Shown here piece by piece: positions 9,363-59,582 of a stretch of DNA of 64,000 bases (its first letter is position 1; every line of letters starts with the position of its first letter). Both the position numbers and the translations under genes were made by a program. The stretch is from contig CP169074.1 of the NCBI GenBank assembly GCA_041891055.1, positions 480,001 through 544,000 on the forward strand, written 5' to 3'. Source of the DNA: Halorutilales archaeon Cl-col2-1. GTDB lineage: Archaea > Halobacteriota > Halobacteria > Halobacteriales > Afararchaeaceae. The notes below the pieces were generated by a model. That model did not search any database. It was not told the origin of the DNA and was given only the letters and a program-made list of their open reading frames with translations.

Positions 9363-9435
9363 GCCGCCATAGCTCAGCTGGTAGAGCACCTCGCTGTTAA
9401 CGAGGTAGTCCCAGGTTCGAGCCCTGGTGGCGGCG
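9363..9435 (+). tRNA. tRNA-Asn(GTT)
   Basis: GCCGCCA/TGGCGGC acceptor stem, CCTCG-CT-GTT-AA-CGAGG anticodon arm, GGTTCGAGCCC T arm; no intron. Confidence 0.97.
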
Positions 9436-13446: not shown

Positions 13447-14148
13447 TCAGAATACGAACGTTCTCAGACCGTACCTTTCGGCTGTCTCGGGTGAGATAGA
13501 GTCGCCCGTGTAGTCGACGACACCGTCCTCCAGAACTGCGATACTGTCTCCGACTTCGAGACCGAATCCGGTGTCATGTGTCGATATCACGAGAGTTATT
13601 CCCTTCTTCGAGAGCTTCTCGACTATCTCGACTATGGCGTCACAGCCCTCTCCGTCGAGTCCCGCTGTGGGCTCGTCGAGTAACACGTAGTCGGGCTCCA
13701 TGACTAAGACGCCCGCGAGAGCGACACGTTTCTTCTCGCCACCGCTGAGTGTGTTACAGAGGCGGTCGCCGTATCCCGAAATTCCCATGGTTTCGAGAGC
13801 TTCTTCTACGCGTCCGTCGTCCTCGATACCGGCGTTCTTCAAGCCGAACCTCACGTCCTGGGAGACGGTCGGAGCTATTATCTGGTCGTTGGGGTCTTGG
13901 AAGACATAGCCGACCCTCTGACGCAGATCTTCGAGGCTGTCGTCGTCGTATCTGACTTTTTCGCCACCGACATAGACTTCTCCCGAGTCGGGCTCCAGGA
14001 GACCGTTGAAATGACGGAGTAAGGTCGACTTCCCCGCACCGTTTTTCCCCATGAGAACGGTCACCTCTCCCGACTCTGCCTTGAAGTCGGTGCCGTTGAG
14101 TACTGTGTCGTCGCCGTATCCGAAGACTAGATCACGCGTCTCTATCAT
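13447..14148 (-). CDS. cbiO: Cobalt ECF transporter ATPase
   Basis: [31 protein letters not shown]. Confidence 0.9.
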
Positions 14149-29690: not shown

Positions 29691-29773
29691 CGCCGAGGGA
29701 GGGATTTGAACCCCCGTGGCTTGAAGCCACACGCTTTCCAGGCGTGCGCCCTGCCAGACTAGGCGACCTCGGC
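29691..29773 (-). tRNA. tRNA-Ser(GGA)
   Basis: Reverse complement GCCGAGG...CACGC-CT-GGA-AA-GCGTG, long variable arm GTGGCTTCAAGCCAC, GGTTCAAATCC, CCTCGGCG. Confidence 0.95.
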
Positions 29774-37681: not shown

Positions 37682-37879
37682 CTACGCATCACACCGAGTT
37701 AATCTACTGTTGAGTTCGTATAGCTCCTTCACGACGTCGCTCTCGGCTACACGGTAACGTGTAGGTGACGTCTCGGGCACCTCTTCGATGATACTCAGTT
37801 CGAGAAGTAGGTCGACGTAGTTGGCTACCGTCTGACGCGTCACGCCTGCGTGTTCGGCTAGCTCCGTCTTATCGAAGCC
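37682..37879 (-). pseudogene. 3' remnant of a wHTH protein gene, 5' part lost at the IS605 relic junction
   Basis: Manual translation FDKTELAEHAGVTRQTVANYVDLLLELSIIEEVPETSPTRYRV...; no start codon. Confidence 0.7.
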
Positions 37880-38380
37880 GTGCAGGTTGACCCTCGAAAT
37901 ACGTCGAAGCGTTGCTCAACGTGTGGATTTACCCACGACCACAATCGGTCGGGCAGTCGTTTGAGTGTCAGCAGTGCGGATACGAGAACCACGCCGACTA
38001 CAACGCTTCGAAGAATATCGGTTTGCGGTATCTCCGTCGTCCCCAGAAATCGGAGATTTCTGGTGTGCGAACGAGACGCTTCGCGTCTCGTCAACGTCGG
38101 CAAAACGCAGACGATGGAGGCGTGCTCAAAAATCAAAGATTTTTGGTATGTCACTGAGCTTCGCTCAGTGAGCACACCCGTAGACGTGCGCTTGAATCGC
38201 GGGACGCTGAACGTGAGTGGAGAGTACAACCTTCCTGCCTCATCTGAGGCGTAGAACGGGAGTCCACGCGAAAGCCCTAGTGCAGGCACAAGCTTGCACG
38301 TCGTCAGACGCAGTCTGACGGGACCCTCAACGAGCGAGTGGGGCCATTGCCCCCGAGCAAAGTAGGGTAGGGTAGTTTAC
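37880..38380 (+). mobile_element. tnpB: IS200/IS605 relic: tnpB 3' fragment, omegaRNA region and right end
   Basis: [14 protein letters not shown] / [21 protein letters not shown] (frameshifted), [20 protein letters not shown], right end CCCTCAACGAGCG...GTAGGGTAGGGTAGTTTAC. Confidence 0.9.
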
Positions 38381-46543: not shown

Positions 46544-46945
46544 GTCAACTACCCCACCCTACTTCGCTCAGTCTGACGACTTCGTCTCAAACTCTACGAG
46601 TTTGAGGGCTCGTGAATCTAAGATTCACGAACGCTCGTTGAGGGTAGGGCTTGTCCGTGTTCTCGCCCTCGACCGTAGTATTGTTCTATACTACGTGGGC
46701 GGTCAAACCGCACTCGGGGTCATCGTCCCGGACTTCGGGGCAAGTTGACTGTTGCCCGTCCATCCGAACAGCTGTTGGCTTGAATGGACGTGTCTTACTG
46801 TACTCCCTTGAGTCAAATAAGTGTACGTCTTCCTCCCCTCCCTACTCATCCGCTATCTCGTGAATCGGAGATTCACGAAGGTACGCAAATCTTTGATTTG
46901 CTTGAAAGCGGATTCCTTGAGGAAGGGGACTCCGCCTGAACAAGT
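46544..46945 (-). mobile_element. Non-autonomous IS200/IS605 miniature (left end, omegaRNA region, right end)
   Basis: Right end GTCAACTACCCCACCCTAC...GAGGGTAGGGCTTG matches 38320-38380; tnpB tail remnant TGNSQLAPKSGTMTP; left-end hairpin CCCCTCCCTACTC...GAGGAAGGGG; left boundary approximate. Confidence 0.8.
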
Positions 46946-50329: not shown

Positions 50330-50403
50330 TGCCGCCTCCCGGATTTGAACCAGGGACAACTCGATCTTCAGTCGAGCGCTCTCCCAGGCTGAGCTAAGGC
50401 GGC
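50330..50403 (-). tRNA. tRNA-Phe(GAA)
   Basis: Reverse complement GCCGCCTTAGCTCAGCCTGGGAGAGCGCTCGA-CT-GAA-GA-TCGAG...GGTTCAAATCCGGGAGGCGGCA. Confidence 0.97.
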
Positions 50404-50456: not shown

Positions 50457-51182
50457 TTAAGCCGTCTTGCCGCCGTCGACCGGGAGTACGACACCGGTCA
50501 CGAACTCCGACGCCGACGTGAGATAGACGACGGCTTCCGAGACGTCGTCCGGGGAGCCTATACTTCCGACGGGGATCGTCTCGGCGATACGTCTCTCCTC
50601 TTCCTCGTCCCTGTCGGGAGGCGAGAGGACTGTAGCGGGTGCTACGGCGTTTACGGAGATCTCGGGCGCGAGCTCCTTCGCCATCCCTTTCGTGAGAGAG
50701 ATCAGTCCCGCCTTCGAGGCGGAGTATGGGAGATAGCTCGGGTACGGCGTTATACCGCCGACTCCCGCGATGTTGACTATCTTACCCTCGTCGATGACTT
50801 CCGCCGCCCTCTGTGAGACGAAGAAGGGCGCTCTGAGGTTGACGTCTATGTTGTGGTTCCAGTCGTCTTCGTCGACCTCGCCGAAAGGAGTCTCGAAGAA
50901 GACCGACGCGCTGTTTACGACTATGTCGAGACCTTCGAATTCGTCGGCTACGTCGTCGACGAGAGACTCACACTCCTCGACCTCAGAGAGGTCTGCCTGA
51001 AACACCGACGACTCGACGCCTTTCTCACGTATCTCCTCAGCGGTCTTCTCGGCGGCGTCGCCACTCGTCCTGTAATGGACTCCGACGTCGGCACCTTCGT
51101 CGGCGAGAGCGAGCGCTATCTCCTTCCCGACGCGTTTAGCACTTCCCGTCACGAGGGCTGTCTTAGAGTCGAGTTCGGACAT
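50457..51182 (-). CDS. SDR oxidoreductase, pteridine reductase (PTR1/FolM)-like
   Basis: TGSAKRVG, VHYRTS, NSASVF, YSASK; start set at MSELDSK. Confidence 0.85.
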   Translation of the reverse strand: MSELDSKTALVTGSAKRVGKEIALALADEGADVGVHYRTSGDAAEKTAEEIREKGVESSVFQADLSEVEECESLVDDVADEFEGLDIVVNSASVFFETPFGEVDEDDWNHNIDVNLRAPFFVSQRAAEVIDEGKIVNIAGVGGITPYPSYLPYSASKAGLISLTKGMAKELAPEISVNAVAPATVLSPPDRDEEEERRIAETIPVGSIGSPDDVSEAVVYLTSASEFVTGVVLPVDGGKTA

Positions 51183-51271
51183 ACGTATACGACGGGGGGA
51201 AACCGGAAAACCGTACCGTCTGATGACAGAGGCTCCGTTCGGTTTATGAGTCGAGACCCACAAGACGGAGT

Positions 51272-51907: not shown

Positions 51908-53053
51908 CTATGAGTCTACGAGGTTGCCGTCCTTTATTACCAGCCTCTGGTTCCTCCAGTTCGAGACGTCTTCGAGGGGGTCTCCCGACAGTACGAGGAG
52001 GTCGGCTGTGTAACCCTCGCGCACGTATCCCACCTCGTCGTCGATGCCCAAGAGTTCGGCGGCGTTCGACGTCGCCGCATCGAGTACGGTCTTCTCGTCA
52101 ATGCCGTACTCCGACATGAGTTCTAACTCGTGGAGGTTCTCACTGTGGTAGTTGTACGACGTACCGGCGTCACTTCCCATTGCGACCCTGACGCCGTTCT
52201 CGACCATTCTGTCGACGACTGACTTCTGTCTCTCGACGGTTTCCTCCGCCTTACGTAACTTCTCGTCGGAGACTTTCTCGGGGTTCTCGATGGACATACG
52301 TGTCGGCTTGTGGGTCGGAACCCAGAAGGTACCGTTCCGCGCGAGCGTCTCGGCGGCTTCGTCGTCGGCGAACTTACAGTGTTCGACGCTGTCGACACCT
52401 GCCTCCGATGCGGCGAGTATGCCGTCTTTCCCCTCGGCGTGTGCCGCAGTAGGGACGTCCTTCATCTCGGCGACCTCGACAGCTGCCTCTATCTCGTCGC
52501 GCGTCATCTCCTGTGCGCCCCGTGTCGACGAGTAGGCACTCGAAGTCGTCATCAGCTTTATGACTTCGGCATCCCGTTCGATCTGTTCCCTCACAGCCTT
52601 TCTGACCTCTGAGACGCCGTCTGCCTCGCGACAGCTTCCCGAGAAATGTCCTCCCGTACACGATATACCCTGTCCACACGCCACGACGCGTGGACCGTCG
52701 ATCAGACCCTCCTCGACCGCTCTGCCGGCGTCTATCACCGACGGGTCGGGTGCGTTGAGGTCTCTGACCGTCGTCACTCCAGCAGAGAGGGTCTTCTCCA
52801 TGTTGTCGACGACTCGGTACCATCTCATCCTGTCGTCGCCGTGTCTGTTAGTCGGGAGACACTCCGAGACAAGATGTACGTGGCAGTCTATGACACCCGG
52901 GACGACGTAGTCGCCGTCGAGGTCATAGATCTCATCGTCTCCGTCAACATCGGAGATATCGGAGTCTATCTCATCTATCTTACCGTCACGTATCAAGACG
53001 TCGCCGTGTCTCTCGCCGTCTGAGTCGACTACTTTCGAATTTTTGAGGAGCAC
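51908..53053 (-). CDS. Metal-dependent amidohydrolase (prolidase-like)
   Basis: PGVIDCHVH, GVTTVRD, AAHAEG, SVEH, GSDAG. Confidence 0.92.
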   Translation of the reverse strand: MLLKNSKVVDSDGERHGDVLIRDGKIDEIDSDISDVDGDDEIYDLDGDYVVPGVIDCHVHLVSECLPTNRHGDDRMRWYRVVDNMEKTLSAGVTTVRDLNAPDPSVIDAGRAVEEGLIDGPRVVACGQGISCTGGHFSGSCREADGVSEVRKAVREQIERDAEVIKLMTTSSAYSSTRGAQEMTRDEIEAAVEVAEMKDVPTAAHAEGKDGILAASEAGVDSVEHCKFADDEAAETLARNGTFWVPTHKPTRMSIENPEKVSDEKLRKAEETVERQKSVVDRMVENGVRVAMGSDAGTSYNYHSENLHELELMSEYGIDEKTVLDAATSNAAELLGIDDEVGYVREGYTADLLVLSGDPLEDVSNWRNQRLVIKDGNLVDS

Positions 53054-53104
53054 ACCGGTTAATTAGCCCGAGATTCGTTAACCCTTCTGGTGTGAGGGTC
53101 AAGT

Positions 53105-53640
53105 GTGAAGTACCCCGCGCACGGTGGCGCGGGGCTTCGCCGTTTGGCCTCTCCCAACAGGGAGCGTAACGGCGGCAGGCGAATTTAATTTCCTCCGCAC
53201 TTCCCAGATGGGTCGTGTGGGAGCAGTAACACCCGAACACGCCGTGTCTCCTACCGCACTAGAGATCGTCTAGTGCTGCCGTAGGTGGCGTGTCCGTGGA
53301 GGTCGGCGGCTTCACCACCGCCCGACACACTTGAAGCCCGGCGCAACCTTGCGGTGTTTTGCGAGGCGGATACCGTGGCTCCCGTACTGTAAATATGGTT
53401 CGACAGCAACTTGAACATATGGATTGTGCAGCGGAGCGAACGCGCTTCACCCCCGCCCACGGTGTTGACGCAAATCAAAGATTTGCGAAAGTCCCGAGAT
53501 CTCCGATCTCGTGTACTCGCTAATCGGAGATTAGCGAAAGTTGTTAGATCTCCGATCTAACAGCCCGTGAATCTATGATTCACGAAGCCGAAAACCTGCG
53601 GTTTTCGGAAGGGCGGGGAACTCGCGCTGCTTTTCGTTTA
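53105..53640 (-). mobile_element. Non-autonomous IS200/IS605 miniature of a second family (left end, promoter, omegaRNA-like region, right end)
   Basis: Right end GAAGCCCCGCGC-CACCGT-GCGCGGGGTACTTCAC; left-end hairpin CCCCGCCC...GGGCGGGG split by a hairpin array; no tnpA/tnpB ORF. Confidence 0.78.
53469..53608. repeat. Array of six perfect triloop hairpins, ~24 bp period
   Basis: CGCAAATC-AAA-GATTTGCG; CGAGATC-TCC-GATCTCG; CGCTAATC-GGA-GATTAGCG; GTTAGATC-TCC-GATCTAAC; CGTGAATC-TAT-GATTCACG; CCGAAAACC-TGC-GGTTTTCGG. Confidence 0.95.
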
Positions 53641-53812
53641 GAGCATGATGTTGTGAAGAGGAGAATAGGATTTCAGCCAGTTTGAGGTTGATTTGACGAA
53701 CTGTACTTAATCGCCTCAATACCAACGCTTTCTCAGCGTGTCACAGAAGGCATCCCACGGTCTATTCATCCAGACCTCTTGAATTTATATACGTGATACA
53801 AGCGCGAATCGG

Positions 53813-59186: not shown

Positions 59187-59582
59187 ATCCCTCTTCTGTG
59201 TGTACTGTTGATTTTACTGAGTCTTAATCATTTTGCCGAGATGTCGGTTTTTACAGGCAGTCGAGACGAATGCCCCGGGGTCGTATGCAAATCGAAGGTT
59301 TGCTTGCTCAAAAATCTAAGATTGATAAAGTCAGCTATGCGCCTCGAATCGTAGAGCCAGCACGCTCACATTCGAAAAATATGGAGAAGCATGATTATGT
59401 CAGTCAAAAAGATCCTAACCGAGAAACGGGCAAAGAGAGAGACAAAGATGTCTGTGACTACACTGGTACTGGGTATCTTTTCGGAGAAAATGCTTTCGCA
59501 GCTTGGTACAGATGGATGAGACGAGAAAAAAACCAATACGAGCGGTAACTTCATGTAAGGTAAGTGCATACTTCGGTACCGT

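Follow-up and report, generated by a model that had tools for sequence, protein, structure and literature searches.

Six hairpins within an IS605-type miniature element of a Halorutilales archaeon are probably three nested copies of a mobile element of about 48 bp

We analysed a stretch of 64,000 nucleotides (the window) from the Halorutilales archaeon Cl-col2-1, which corresponds to C1:480001-544000 of a 2.06-Mb, four-contig genome (G000) and is also met in salt-lake and hypersaline metagenomes. On its minus strand lies a 533-bp transposase-free miniature element of the IS605 type (53103-53635, boundaries within 2 nt), which is host to an array of six short hairpins (53469-53608). We consider it likely that the array comprises three copies, nested in one another, of a non-autonomous mobile element of very small size, about 48 bp, each copy being a pair of hairpins (a doublet). 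The host element fits the PATE type in having hairpins at both ends and no terminal inverted repeat, target duplication or transposase gene, and Pfam finds nothing for the small open reading frames (ORFs) within 53103-53635. At its right end, the subterminal hairpin CCCCGCGC-ACGGTG-GCGCGGGG (53113-53134) is intact and stands 10 nt from the tip. The left-end hairpin begins with the 5' arm CCCCGCCC (53451-53458) and the loop ACGGTG, which together occupy 53451-53464; then come 146 nt and, 17 nt from the element tip, the 3' arm GGGCGGGG (53611-53618). The right-end hairpin has the same type of stem and the same ACGGTG loop with nothing inserted, and so serves as an internal control. For comparison, the end hairpins of IS608 lie 10 and 19 nt from the tips.

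Immediately outside the left end stands the word GTTTAGA (53636-53642), which is common to all copies of the host element and is kept at the empty site. Similarity among five copies extends to GTTTAGA and then ends, and this word is likely to be the target beside the left end. The empty site itself is seen in two metagenome contigs of 6.6 and 6.2 kb (X1, X2), about 98% identical to the flanks, in which 53102 is joined to 53636, skipping 533 nt, with a shorter side of 203 nt. A 541-bp copy of the host element with 98% identity is found at C2:51184-51724, and the terminal 211 bp of a third copy form the left end of the only tnpA-bearing IS605 in the genome. All three young copies (98% identity) carry the full array and the whole element is missing from a close relative, on which grounds the host element appears to have transposed with the array already in its hairpin loop.

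The array consists of six perfect inverted repeats with 3-nt spacers at a period of about 24 bp. In order, these are hairpin 1 (53469-53487, 8-bp stem, loop AAA), hairpin 2 (53495-53511, 7 bp, TCC), hairpin 3 (53517-53537, 9 bp, GGA), hairpin 4 (53542-53562, 9 bp, TCC), hairpin 5 (53566-53584, 8 bp, TAT) and hairpin 6 (53588-53608, 9 bp, TGC). A preliminary description of this DNA had listed all six, and each is confirmed here, including closure of the loop by a C-G pair in 6/6 hairpins and an ATC-NNN-GAT core in 5/6, the core of hairpin 6 being ACC/GGT. As single-stranded DNA (ssDNA), 53440-53630 is predicted to fold into a multiloop of the six hairpins closed by the flanking arms CCCCGCCC and GGGCGGGG, with energies of -53.8 kcal/mol for the plus strand and -54.2 kcal/mol for the minus strand (z = -8.4 and -8.5), and none of 200 shuffles folds as well as the real sequence. 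That the array splits the left-end hairpin of an IS605 miniature, as had been proposed, is borne out by the two arms, by the right-end homologue and by metagenome contigs, which in 4/4 runs contain a joint between 53464 and 53611 that skips all 146 nt (sides 19-25 nt). Judged against the uninterrupted right-end hairpin, the array is an insertion into the left-end hairpin.

Hairpins of this kind are abundant in the genome, which contains 514 perfect examples with a 3-nt loop and a stem of at least 7 bp. On contig C1 their number is 454, compared with 205, 190 and 213 in three first-order Markov simulations; perfect hairpins with loops of 4 and 5 nt number 214 and 388 on the same contig, the simulation controls applying to the 3-nt class only. 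The ATC-NNN-GAT core is present in 182 of the 514 (158 on C1 versus 2, 5 and 4 in the simulations), and of all 614 ATC-NNN-GAT sites these 182 also pair perfectly at the following four positions, with a single mismatch at only 53 others (chance expectation about 29). Stem lengths come to a sharp stop at 9 bp (229 of 7 bp, 139 of 8 bp, 141 of 9 bp and 3 of 10 bp), and the loops are chiefly GAA/TTC, GGA/TCC, AAA/TTT and AGA/TCT. Triloops of the C(GNA)G type make very stable DNA mini-hairpins. The largest clusters contain 9 hairpins in G000 and 15 in its sister species (G001). A chance cluster of palindromes or a plain tandem repeat might be suspected from the regular spacing, adjacent hairpins lying 23-25 nt apart in 111 of 171 pairs, but the probability of such an origin is negligible given the fold z-score of -8.4, the genome-wide excess, the sharp 9-bp limit, the differing sequences of neighbouring units and the dispersal of copies in unique DNA. 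Rfam has no family for the hairpins of the window at the gathering threshold or, with E values up to 1, for five loci from other genera.

Thirty non-identical neighbouring pairs of hairpins share one alignment frame. It opens with an ACGTT tag and closes with a GACGT tag, and between these lie two hairpins, the first with a stem of 8 bp and a loop of 3 nt, separated by the linker AGCC(A). From these 30 doublets a profile that uses sequence alone was made, and it finds 100 doublets in the genome at E < 0.01, 50 on each strand. Once the doublets are oriented, the loop of the first hairpin is mostly pyrimidine (TTC, TTT, TCC or TCT in 59/100) and that of the second mostly purine (GGA, AAA, GTA, AGA or GAA in 65/100). 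The left tag reads ACGTT in 36 doublets, -CGTT in 17 and GCGTT in 10, with GACGT as the right tag, and the two tags are mutual reverse complements. In general form, each hairpin has a perfect stem of 8-9 bp and a tag, ACGTY, that points outwards. Because the loop types are opposite and the tags reverse-complementary, the doublet is an inverted, tail-to-tail pair of one basic tagged hairpin, and this arrangement therefore places one purine-type triloop on each DNA strand. The hairpins have a core, tags and linkers in common, contrary to one of the conditions named beforehand as a refutation of the mobile-doublet reading.

Covariation within the stems was assessed using only profile hits outside the building set, with gapped rows set aside and with a profile that is blind to pairing. 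The first hairpin is perfect in 38/60 doublets versus a mean of 4.5 (maximum 12) in 500 shuffles of the partner arms, and the second is perfect over 7 bp in 20/23 versus 1.4 (maximum 5) in 500 such shuffles. Variable stem positions show three or four different Watson-Crick pairs, and linkers and tags are more conserved than stems. The preliminary description had held that the stems vary in sequence while remaining paired, and covariation in these independent hits agrees. One four-hairpin block is present at three unrelated loci, namely C1:1726760-1726930 (in a Hel308-type helicase gene), 1421030-1421220 and 13690-13870 (both non-coding). Its inner hairpins, which have a CGC core, are near-identical, whereas the outer hairpins with the ATC core differ, with changes on both arms. 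Variation is confined to the ATC-core stems and always affects both arms, even within otherwise near-identical blocks. At C1:129993-130013 and C1:1930867-1930887, a 21-nt hairpin within identical flanks differs at five positions, comprising two paired stem changes and the loop, as if one member of the family had been swapped in place.

The arrangement of doublets within the six-hairpin array can be read from copies that differ in length. A copy at C2:69929-70040 has hairpins 1 and 6 alone, without the 96-nt inner block that contains hairpins 2-5 (53489-53584), and a joint from 53488 to 53585 that skips these same 96 nt occurs in 4/4 metagenome runs. A further copy of the array has neither hairpin 1 nor hairpin 2. 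The 146-nt insertion (53465-53610), which lies where the loop meets the 3' arm, is therefore read as three nested doublets: hairpins 1 and 6 probably form an outer doublet whose AGCC linker is split by the two doublets of the inner block, 2+3 in reversed and 4+5 in forward orientation. Pairing of hairpin 1 with 2 and of 3 with 4 had been suggested earlier and is probably wrong, because both the polymorphic copies and the linker motifs favour the nested pairing.

Support for mobility of the doublets is provided by comparison of filled and empty copies. Alignment of insertion sequence (IS) paralogues with their uninterrupted counterparts defines empty sites at which one doublet is cleanly present or absent; the length differences are 43, 45, 47 and 49 nt, and the junction repeats are ACA, TATC, CGTT and (C)GTT. 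One doublet is inserted in an IS of the DDE type, as typed by reading the translation. Homologous copies thus vary in the hairpins that they carry, so that the original claim of mobility survives, and the proposed unit of roughly 50 bp matches the doublet of about 48 bp as the unit of gain. Two loci, L040/C1:942201 and L045/C1:1162486, which may be paralogues and in which MAFFT misplaced the gaps, were read by eye and excluded as empty sites. The arrays of G000 and G001 were compared for 20 of some 36 hairpin regions of G001. Their lengths differ by approximate multiples of 48 nt (48, 143, 162, 268 and 304 nt), and one of these differences has flanks of 100% identity.

The direction of change is given by single-copy host genes. 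An M24 peptidase gene (C1:1620737-1622023) contains, in G000, an exact 48-nt in-frame insert of 16 residues that is missing from the sister species (95.6% DNA identity) and from 5 outgroup genera, and a BioF-like enzyme (C1:1773752-1774960) contains another exact 48-nt, 16-residue in-frame insert that is missing from the sister species (92.5% DNA identity) and from 3 outgroup genera. The sites of these two inserts, with the junction marked by a slash, are CAC/GAAGAAGAG and CACC/GATGAGAGAG. In MetRS (C1:1751583-1753664), a 16-residue insert is common to both species and missing from 8 outgroups, two of which have unrelated longer loops at this place; two contig-end fragments (G016, G009) were left out of the alignment. 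ThiN (C1:1918461-1919429) has a 16-residue insert in both species that is missing from 5 outgroups, and the Hel308-type helicase (C1:1725265-1727565) has 96 nt (32 residues) in G000, 144 nt in G001 and none in 4 outgroups, this alignment being made without two full-query matches of 45-50% identity that may be paralogues (G006, G005). All five host-gene inserts for which relatives were compared are gains and not deletions elsewhere, because they lie in single-copy genes and are missing from outgroups, and by the same alignments those of the M24 peptidase and the BioF-like enzyme arose after the split from the sister species.

Further in-frame doublets were seen in G000, the only genome inspected for them, in a GT4 glycosyltransferase (C1:1010059-1011186), in a thioredoxin-domain protein just after the CxxC motif (C1:1373721-1374554), in an integrase-family protein, which has two within its catalytic domain (C1:1836588-1837718), and in three tnpB genes just before the RuvC-I strand. 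In-frame copies are hence present in at least eight unrelated host genes and three tnpB genes. The element had been described as a non-coding parasite; in view of these copies, it is not strictly non-coding. An assignment of the hairpin inside tnpB to the RuvC-II motif IEDL was rejected, as the translation shows it to be a doublet of 48 nt that immediately precedes the RuvC-I strand VLGVDLG. We also discarded the idea that each doublet has one open frame in six; 40 gap-free doublets have 0-6, with 3 the commonest number (13/40).

Other doublets are present in the window. Those at 38043-38091, in the 3' coding end of a broken tnpB, and at 38127-38171, in the same 3' region, where it brings a stop codon, are both extra relative to an intact tnpB paralogue (C1:129180-129560); two zinc-ribbon fragments of the broken gene are at 37871-38019. 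A doublet at 46586-46630 is located in the remnant of an IS1341-type right end and another, with stems of 9 and 7 bp, at 46858-46901, while 46741-46745 is an empty site at which the paralogues C1:1655876-1655919 and C2:62231-62274 have a 49-nt doublet. The related doublets reported earlier are therefore real at 38043-38171 (four hairpins), 46586-46630 (two) and 46858-46901 (two), but 38302-38320 contains a single family-like hairpin (8-bp stem, loop GCA). The decayed copy noted at 59287-59323 is recognizable by eye as a doublet with mismatched stems. The host genes beside the miniature element encode a short-chain dehydrogenase (50457-51263) and an amidohydrolase (51908-53053) according to Pfam; the latter assignment led us to reject the ORF at 51908-53053 as a tnpB. 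Rfam places tRNA genes of the window at 9363-9435, 29691-29773 and 50330-50403. Elsewhere in the genome, an ORF of 323 aa (C1:937477-938923) with a C-terminal cysteine cluster, Cas4-like by motif alone, has hairpin clusters on both sides.

The sites of the doublets are not random. A position 0-400 nt 3' of a TnpB zinc ribbon is found for 24 of 170 clusters, compared with 39 of 4969 random points, and a position 300-1,500 nt upstream of one, within the span of tnpB towards its 5' end, for 20 of 170, compared with 86 of 4969. The omegaRNA lies 3' of tnpB. Flanks are multi-copy for 76 of 105 clusters versus 44 of 300 random sites. Existing hairpins are favoured as sites: besides the loop of the left-end hairpin described above, copies occupy the loop of another family hairpin inside tnpB, lie 7-12 nt from GC-rich IS hairpins on the 3' side, or are set in the linkers or flanks of doublets already in place. 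Homing to IS200/IS605 ends and omegaRNA regions, as suggested at the outset, therefore stands as an enrichment and not as a rule, since 63 of the 100 profile doublets are away from any TnpB and copies lie in a DDE-type IS and in host genes. An uninterrupted hairpin, CCCGCCC-TTCA-GGGCGGG, is present at C1:429314 in the left end of another TnpB element, and the TTCA loop is a recurrent feature of native end hairpins of IS1341 elements here.

The hairpins could also be functional components of IS605/IS1341 ends or of omegaRNAs from the outset, not independent elements, in which case differences between copies would be deletions. In favour of this are their enrichment at either end of TnpB elements, the full array in all three young copies of the host element and the occurrence, in other genera, of a doublet at a fixed place in a conserved element. 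We regard this as very improbable. It is already contradicted by the inserts in housekeeping genes, for which outgroups show gain, and it has to contend with the insertion in a DDE-type IS, the 63 doublets located away from TnpB, the right-end hairpin of the same element without insert, and copies of tnpA-bearing IS605 without hairpins in two other genera.

A loose hairpin pattern applied to 401 sampled genomes of the order gives 64 matches in G000 and 48 in G001, and at least one in 138 of the 401 genomes; others with the pattern mostly have 1-5 and at most 15 matches, and a reversed-pattern control matches in 2 genomes. A strict tag-hairpin-linker pattern applied to the whole species collection gives 23 stretches, all titled Halobacteriales, named haloarchaea or "Euryarchaeota archaeon" metagenome-assembled genomes, with no Haloquadratum record among them. 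The scan of the genome and its relatives that had been proposed thus yields 100 doublets in the one and a widespread hairpin pattern in the other. In four other genera (L005-L009; G208, G243, G383 and G330), an intergenic element of about 200 bp is conserved, and one doublet always occupies the same position within it, adjoining a long GC-rich hairpin; this element has no Rfam match. Perfect stems, and the presence across the order of the hairpin TCAGAAATC-NNN-GATTTCTGA with at least one match in 138/401 genomes, would be in keeping with hairpins that are kept for a service to the host, as bacterial REPs are, at transcript 3' ends, in mRNA stability or in protein binding, with mobility as an incidental property. 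Such a role seems improbable as the main explanation in view of copy numbers that range from 0 to 64 among genomes of one order, the location of 76/105 clusters in multi-copy DNA, and copies inside coding regions and pseudogenes.

Doublets, then, are gained in 48-nt units, nest within one another, travel as larger blocks and stay perfectly paired. The family of inverted hairpin pairs has entered the loop/arm junction of the left-end hairpin of an IS605-type element. As a mechanism, we suggest that surviving copies fold on themselves and so may do no harm in the loop of a host hairpin, in an RNA scaffold or in a surface loop of a protein; selection would then preserve perfect stems and, in genes, a length divisible by three. 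Arrays would grow as new copies land in or beside old ones. As the motor, our leading candidate is the only IS200-type Y1 HUH TnpA of the genome, which would act in trans and cut and paste, or copy, the doublet as ssDNA, much as RAYTs are thought to move REPINs, although on this analogy we can propose TnpA only tentatively. The gene in question (C1:979011-979415, 134 aa) is part of an IS605 that also has a divergent tnpB, and by eye the HUH and Y motifs of its product look IS200-like. A tblastn search of the genome finds no second tnpA copy or remnant (next best E = 0.26), although TnpB zinc-ribbon matches number 33. A copy of the array lies 50 bp after tnpA, within the left end of that IS605. 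A search for a RAYT or TnpA gene flanked by the hairpins had been proposed; the sole Y1 gene sits in an ordinary IS605 with the array on one side only. In the sister species, the IS605 has family hairpins at both ends.

Movement might also occur by copy-choice, without any transposase, if a stalled nascent strand were to switch by 3-4 nt of microhomology to a distant doublet, copy it and return, and if gene conversion between IS copies and hairpin-templated quasipalindrome correction kept the stems perfect. Quasipalindrome correction is a known process, and haloarchaea are polyploid, as the genome here probably is. Copy-choice would account for short junction repeats of differing sequence, for insertions that cluster in or beside existing hairpins, where forks would stall, for the 50:50 orientation, for arrays that change between congeners in units of about 48 nt while their flanks are 100% identical, and for the one site at which a stem is swapped on both arms within identical flanks. 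Conserved outward tags and a fixed 48-nt unit, however, resemble recognition features, and constant CGC-core inner hairpins beside varying ATC-core stems are not predicted by a general correction of palindromes. Template switching between distant loci is, moreover, rare in known systems. On balance, copy-choice is the main rival explanation, though one that we think unlikely.

Several observations weigh against a small mobile element of the kind that we favour, or against TnpA as its motor. A number of the IS-copy comparisons leave gain, loss and gene conversion inseparable, and the junction repeats (ACA, TATC, CGTT twice and GACG-like twice) suit microhomology as well as they suit a target word. 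Where metagenome joints bridge the whole array, their sides are short, and further letters may lie in between. Judging from the fixed doublet in the ~200-bp element of other genera, some of the copies may be long-established components and not recent arrivals. The hairpins of the doublets are A/T-rich with triloops, whereas those native to the IS are rich in GC and have the loops TTCA or ACGGTG. Strand bias is known for IS200/IS605, and none is seen for the doublets, either genome-wide (50:50) or in the GCC versus GGC linkers of C1 (20 versus 21). Finally, a Y1 gene is present in 4/5 hairpin-free and in 4/5 hairpin-rich genomes, the exception among the latter being 78% complete.

Among known systems, the doublets resemble the bacterial REP/BIME and REPIN-RAYT systems in being tagged short hairpins in hundreds of copies, in forming inverted pairs and alternating arrays, in occurring with one Y1 HUH gene and in being non-autonomous. 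They differ in their archaeal host, in stems that are perfect, A/T-rich and widely variable between copies with 3-nt loops, and in having ACGTT/GCGTT on one side and GACGT on the other, where REPs have a GTAG tag at the 5' foot. The sole Y1 gene here is, in addition, an ordinary IS200-type tnpA inside an IS605 with the array on one side. Membership of the REPIN-RAYT class fails on the GTAG tag and on the RAYT gene. According to the part of a paper that deals with Y1 enzymes, only the IS200-type subclass is seen in Archaea and the RAYT class is reported from bacteria only (PMC6006769).

The CGTC-tagged REPs and the Rickettsia palindromic elements (RPEs), as portrayed in sections of two articles, are like the doublets in having stems of 8-9 bp and dimers, no dedicated transposase having been found, and in-frame insertion into unrelated housekeeping genes (PMC3733652; PMC10969869). 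A resemblance is possible in the unpaired tag at one foot, which is CGTC-like in those elements; in the doublets the left tag is mostly of the CGTT type, and CGTC occurs on the strand opposite the right-hand tag GACGT. Loops of 4-5 nt in those elements, compared with 3 nt here, set the two apart, as does the length of RPEs, about 100-150 bp versus 48 bp (same sections of PMC3733652 and PMC10969869). The doublets, in addition, target hairpins of other mobile elements. Membership of the CGTC-REP class thus fails on loop length. Tagged REPs are reported only from bacterial phyla in the portion of PMC3733652 concerned with their distribution.

The nearest archaeal precedent is SMR-A of Haloquadratum walsbyi. 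In the relevant passages of PMC3119063, SMR-A is haloarchaeal, without a transposase and without clear target duplication, its mobilisation is called enigmatic, and it inserts within near-terminal palindromes of IS605-type transposons and PATEs, as the doublets do. SMR-A is about 110 bp long, a size approached by the 96-nt two-doublet blocks found here, but its terminal inverted repeats are prominent and its copies more than 95% identical (PMC3119063), whereas the doublets measure 48 bp, vary in their stems and also enter host genes; SMR-A (HqIRS42/43/55) is set apart from the doublets by the description in those passages and not by sequence. PATEs, introduced there as transposase-free derivatives of IS200/IS605, match the 533-bp host element, including its empty site and the conserved word at one end, and do not match the doublets, whose hairpins differ from IS end hairpins and which are without the 10- and 17-nt terminal stretches (PMC3119063). 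A search of full-text literature, with subscription journals and supplements outside its range, found no such doublets in Archaea beyond PMC3119063.

In its most complete form, the hypothesis would be that this is the first REPIN-like system of Archaea, in which an ordinary IS200-type TnpA, in place of a domesticated RAYT, moves the doublet as ssDNA, and the doublet parasitises the hairpins on which IS605 transposition depends and the tnpB 3' region and reshapes proteins in 16-residue steps, with stems diversified by palindrome-templated copying from arm to arm; we regard this whole picture as doubtful. In its behaviour the element is comparable to bacterial REP/REPIN and, where it lies within genes, to Rickettsia palindromic elements. 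REP, REPIN and RPE are treated as bacterial, and the same way of life is seen here, in more compact form, in an archaeal lineage. Exact 48-nt gains in single-copy genes since two species split make the direction of change unusually clear. The doublets offer a tractable case for how such elements move without a dedicated enzyme. They also represent a natural test of tolerance to insertion in a TnpA-recognised hairpin and in the tnpB 3' region, which bears on the engineering of TnpB guides, and they supply MetRS, Hel308 and other enzymes with surface inserts of 16 residues. They are a likely explanation, or a relative, of the "enigmatic" SMR-A repeats of Haloquadratum.

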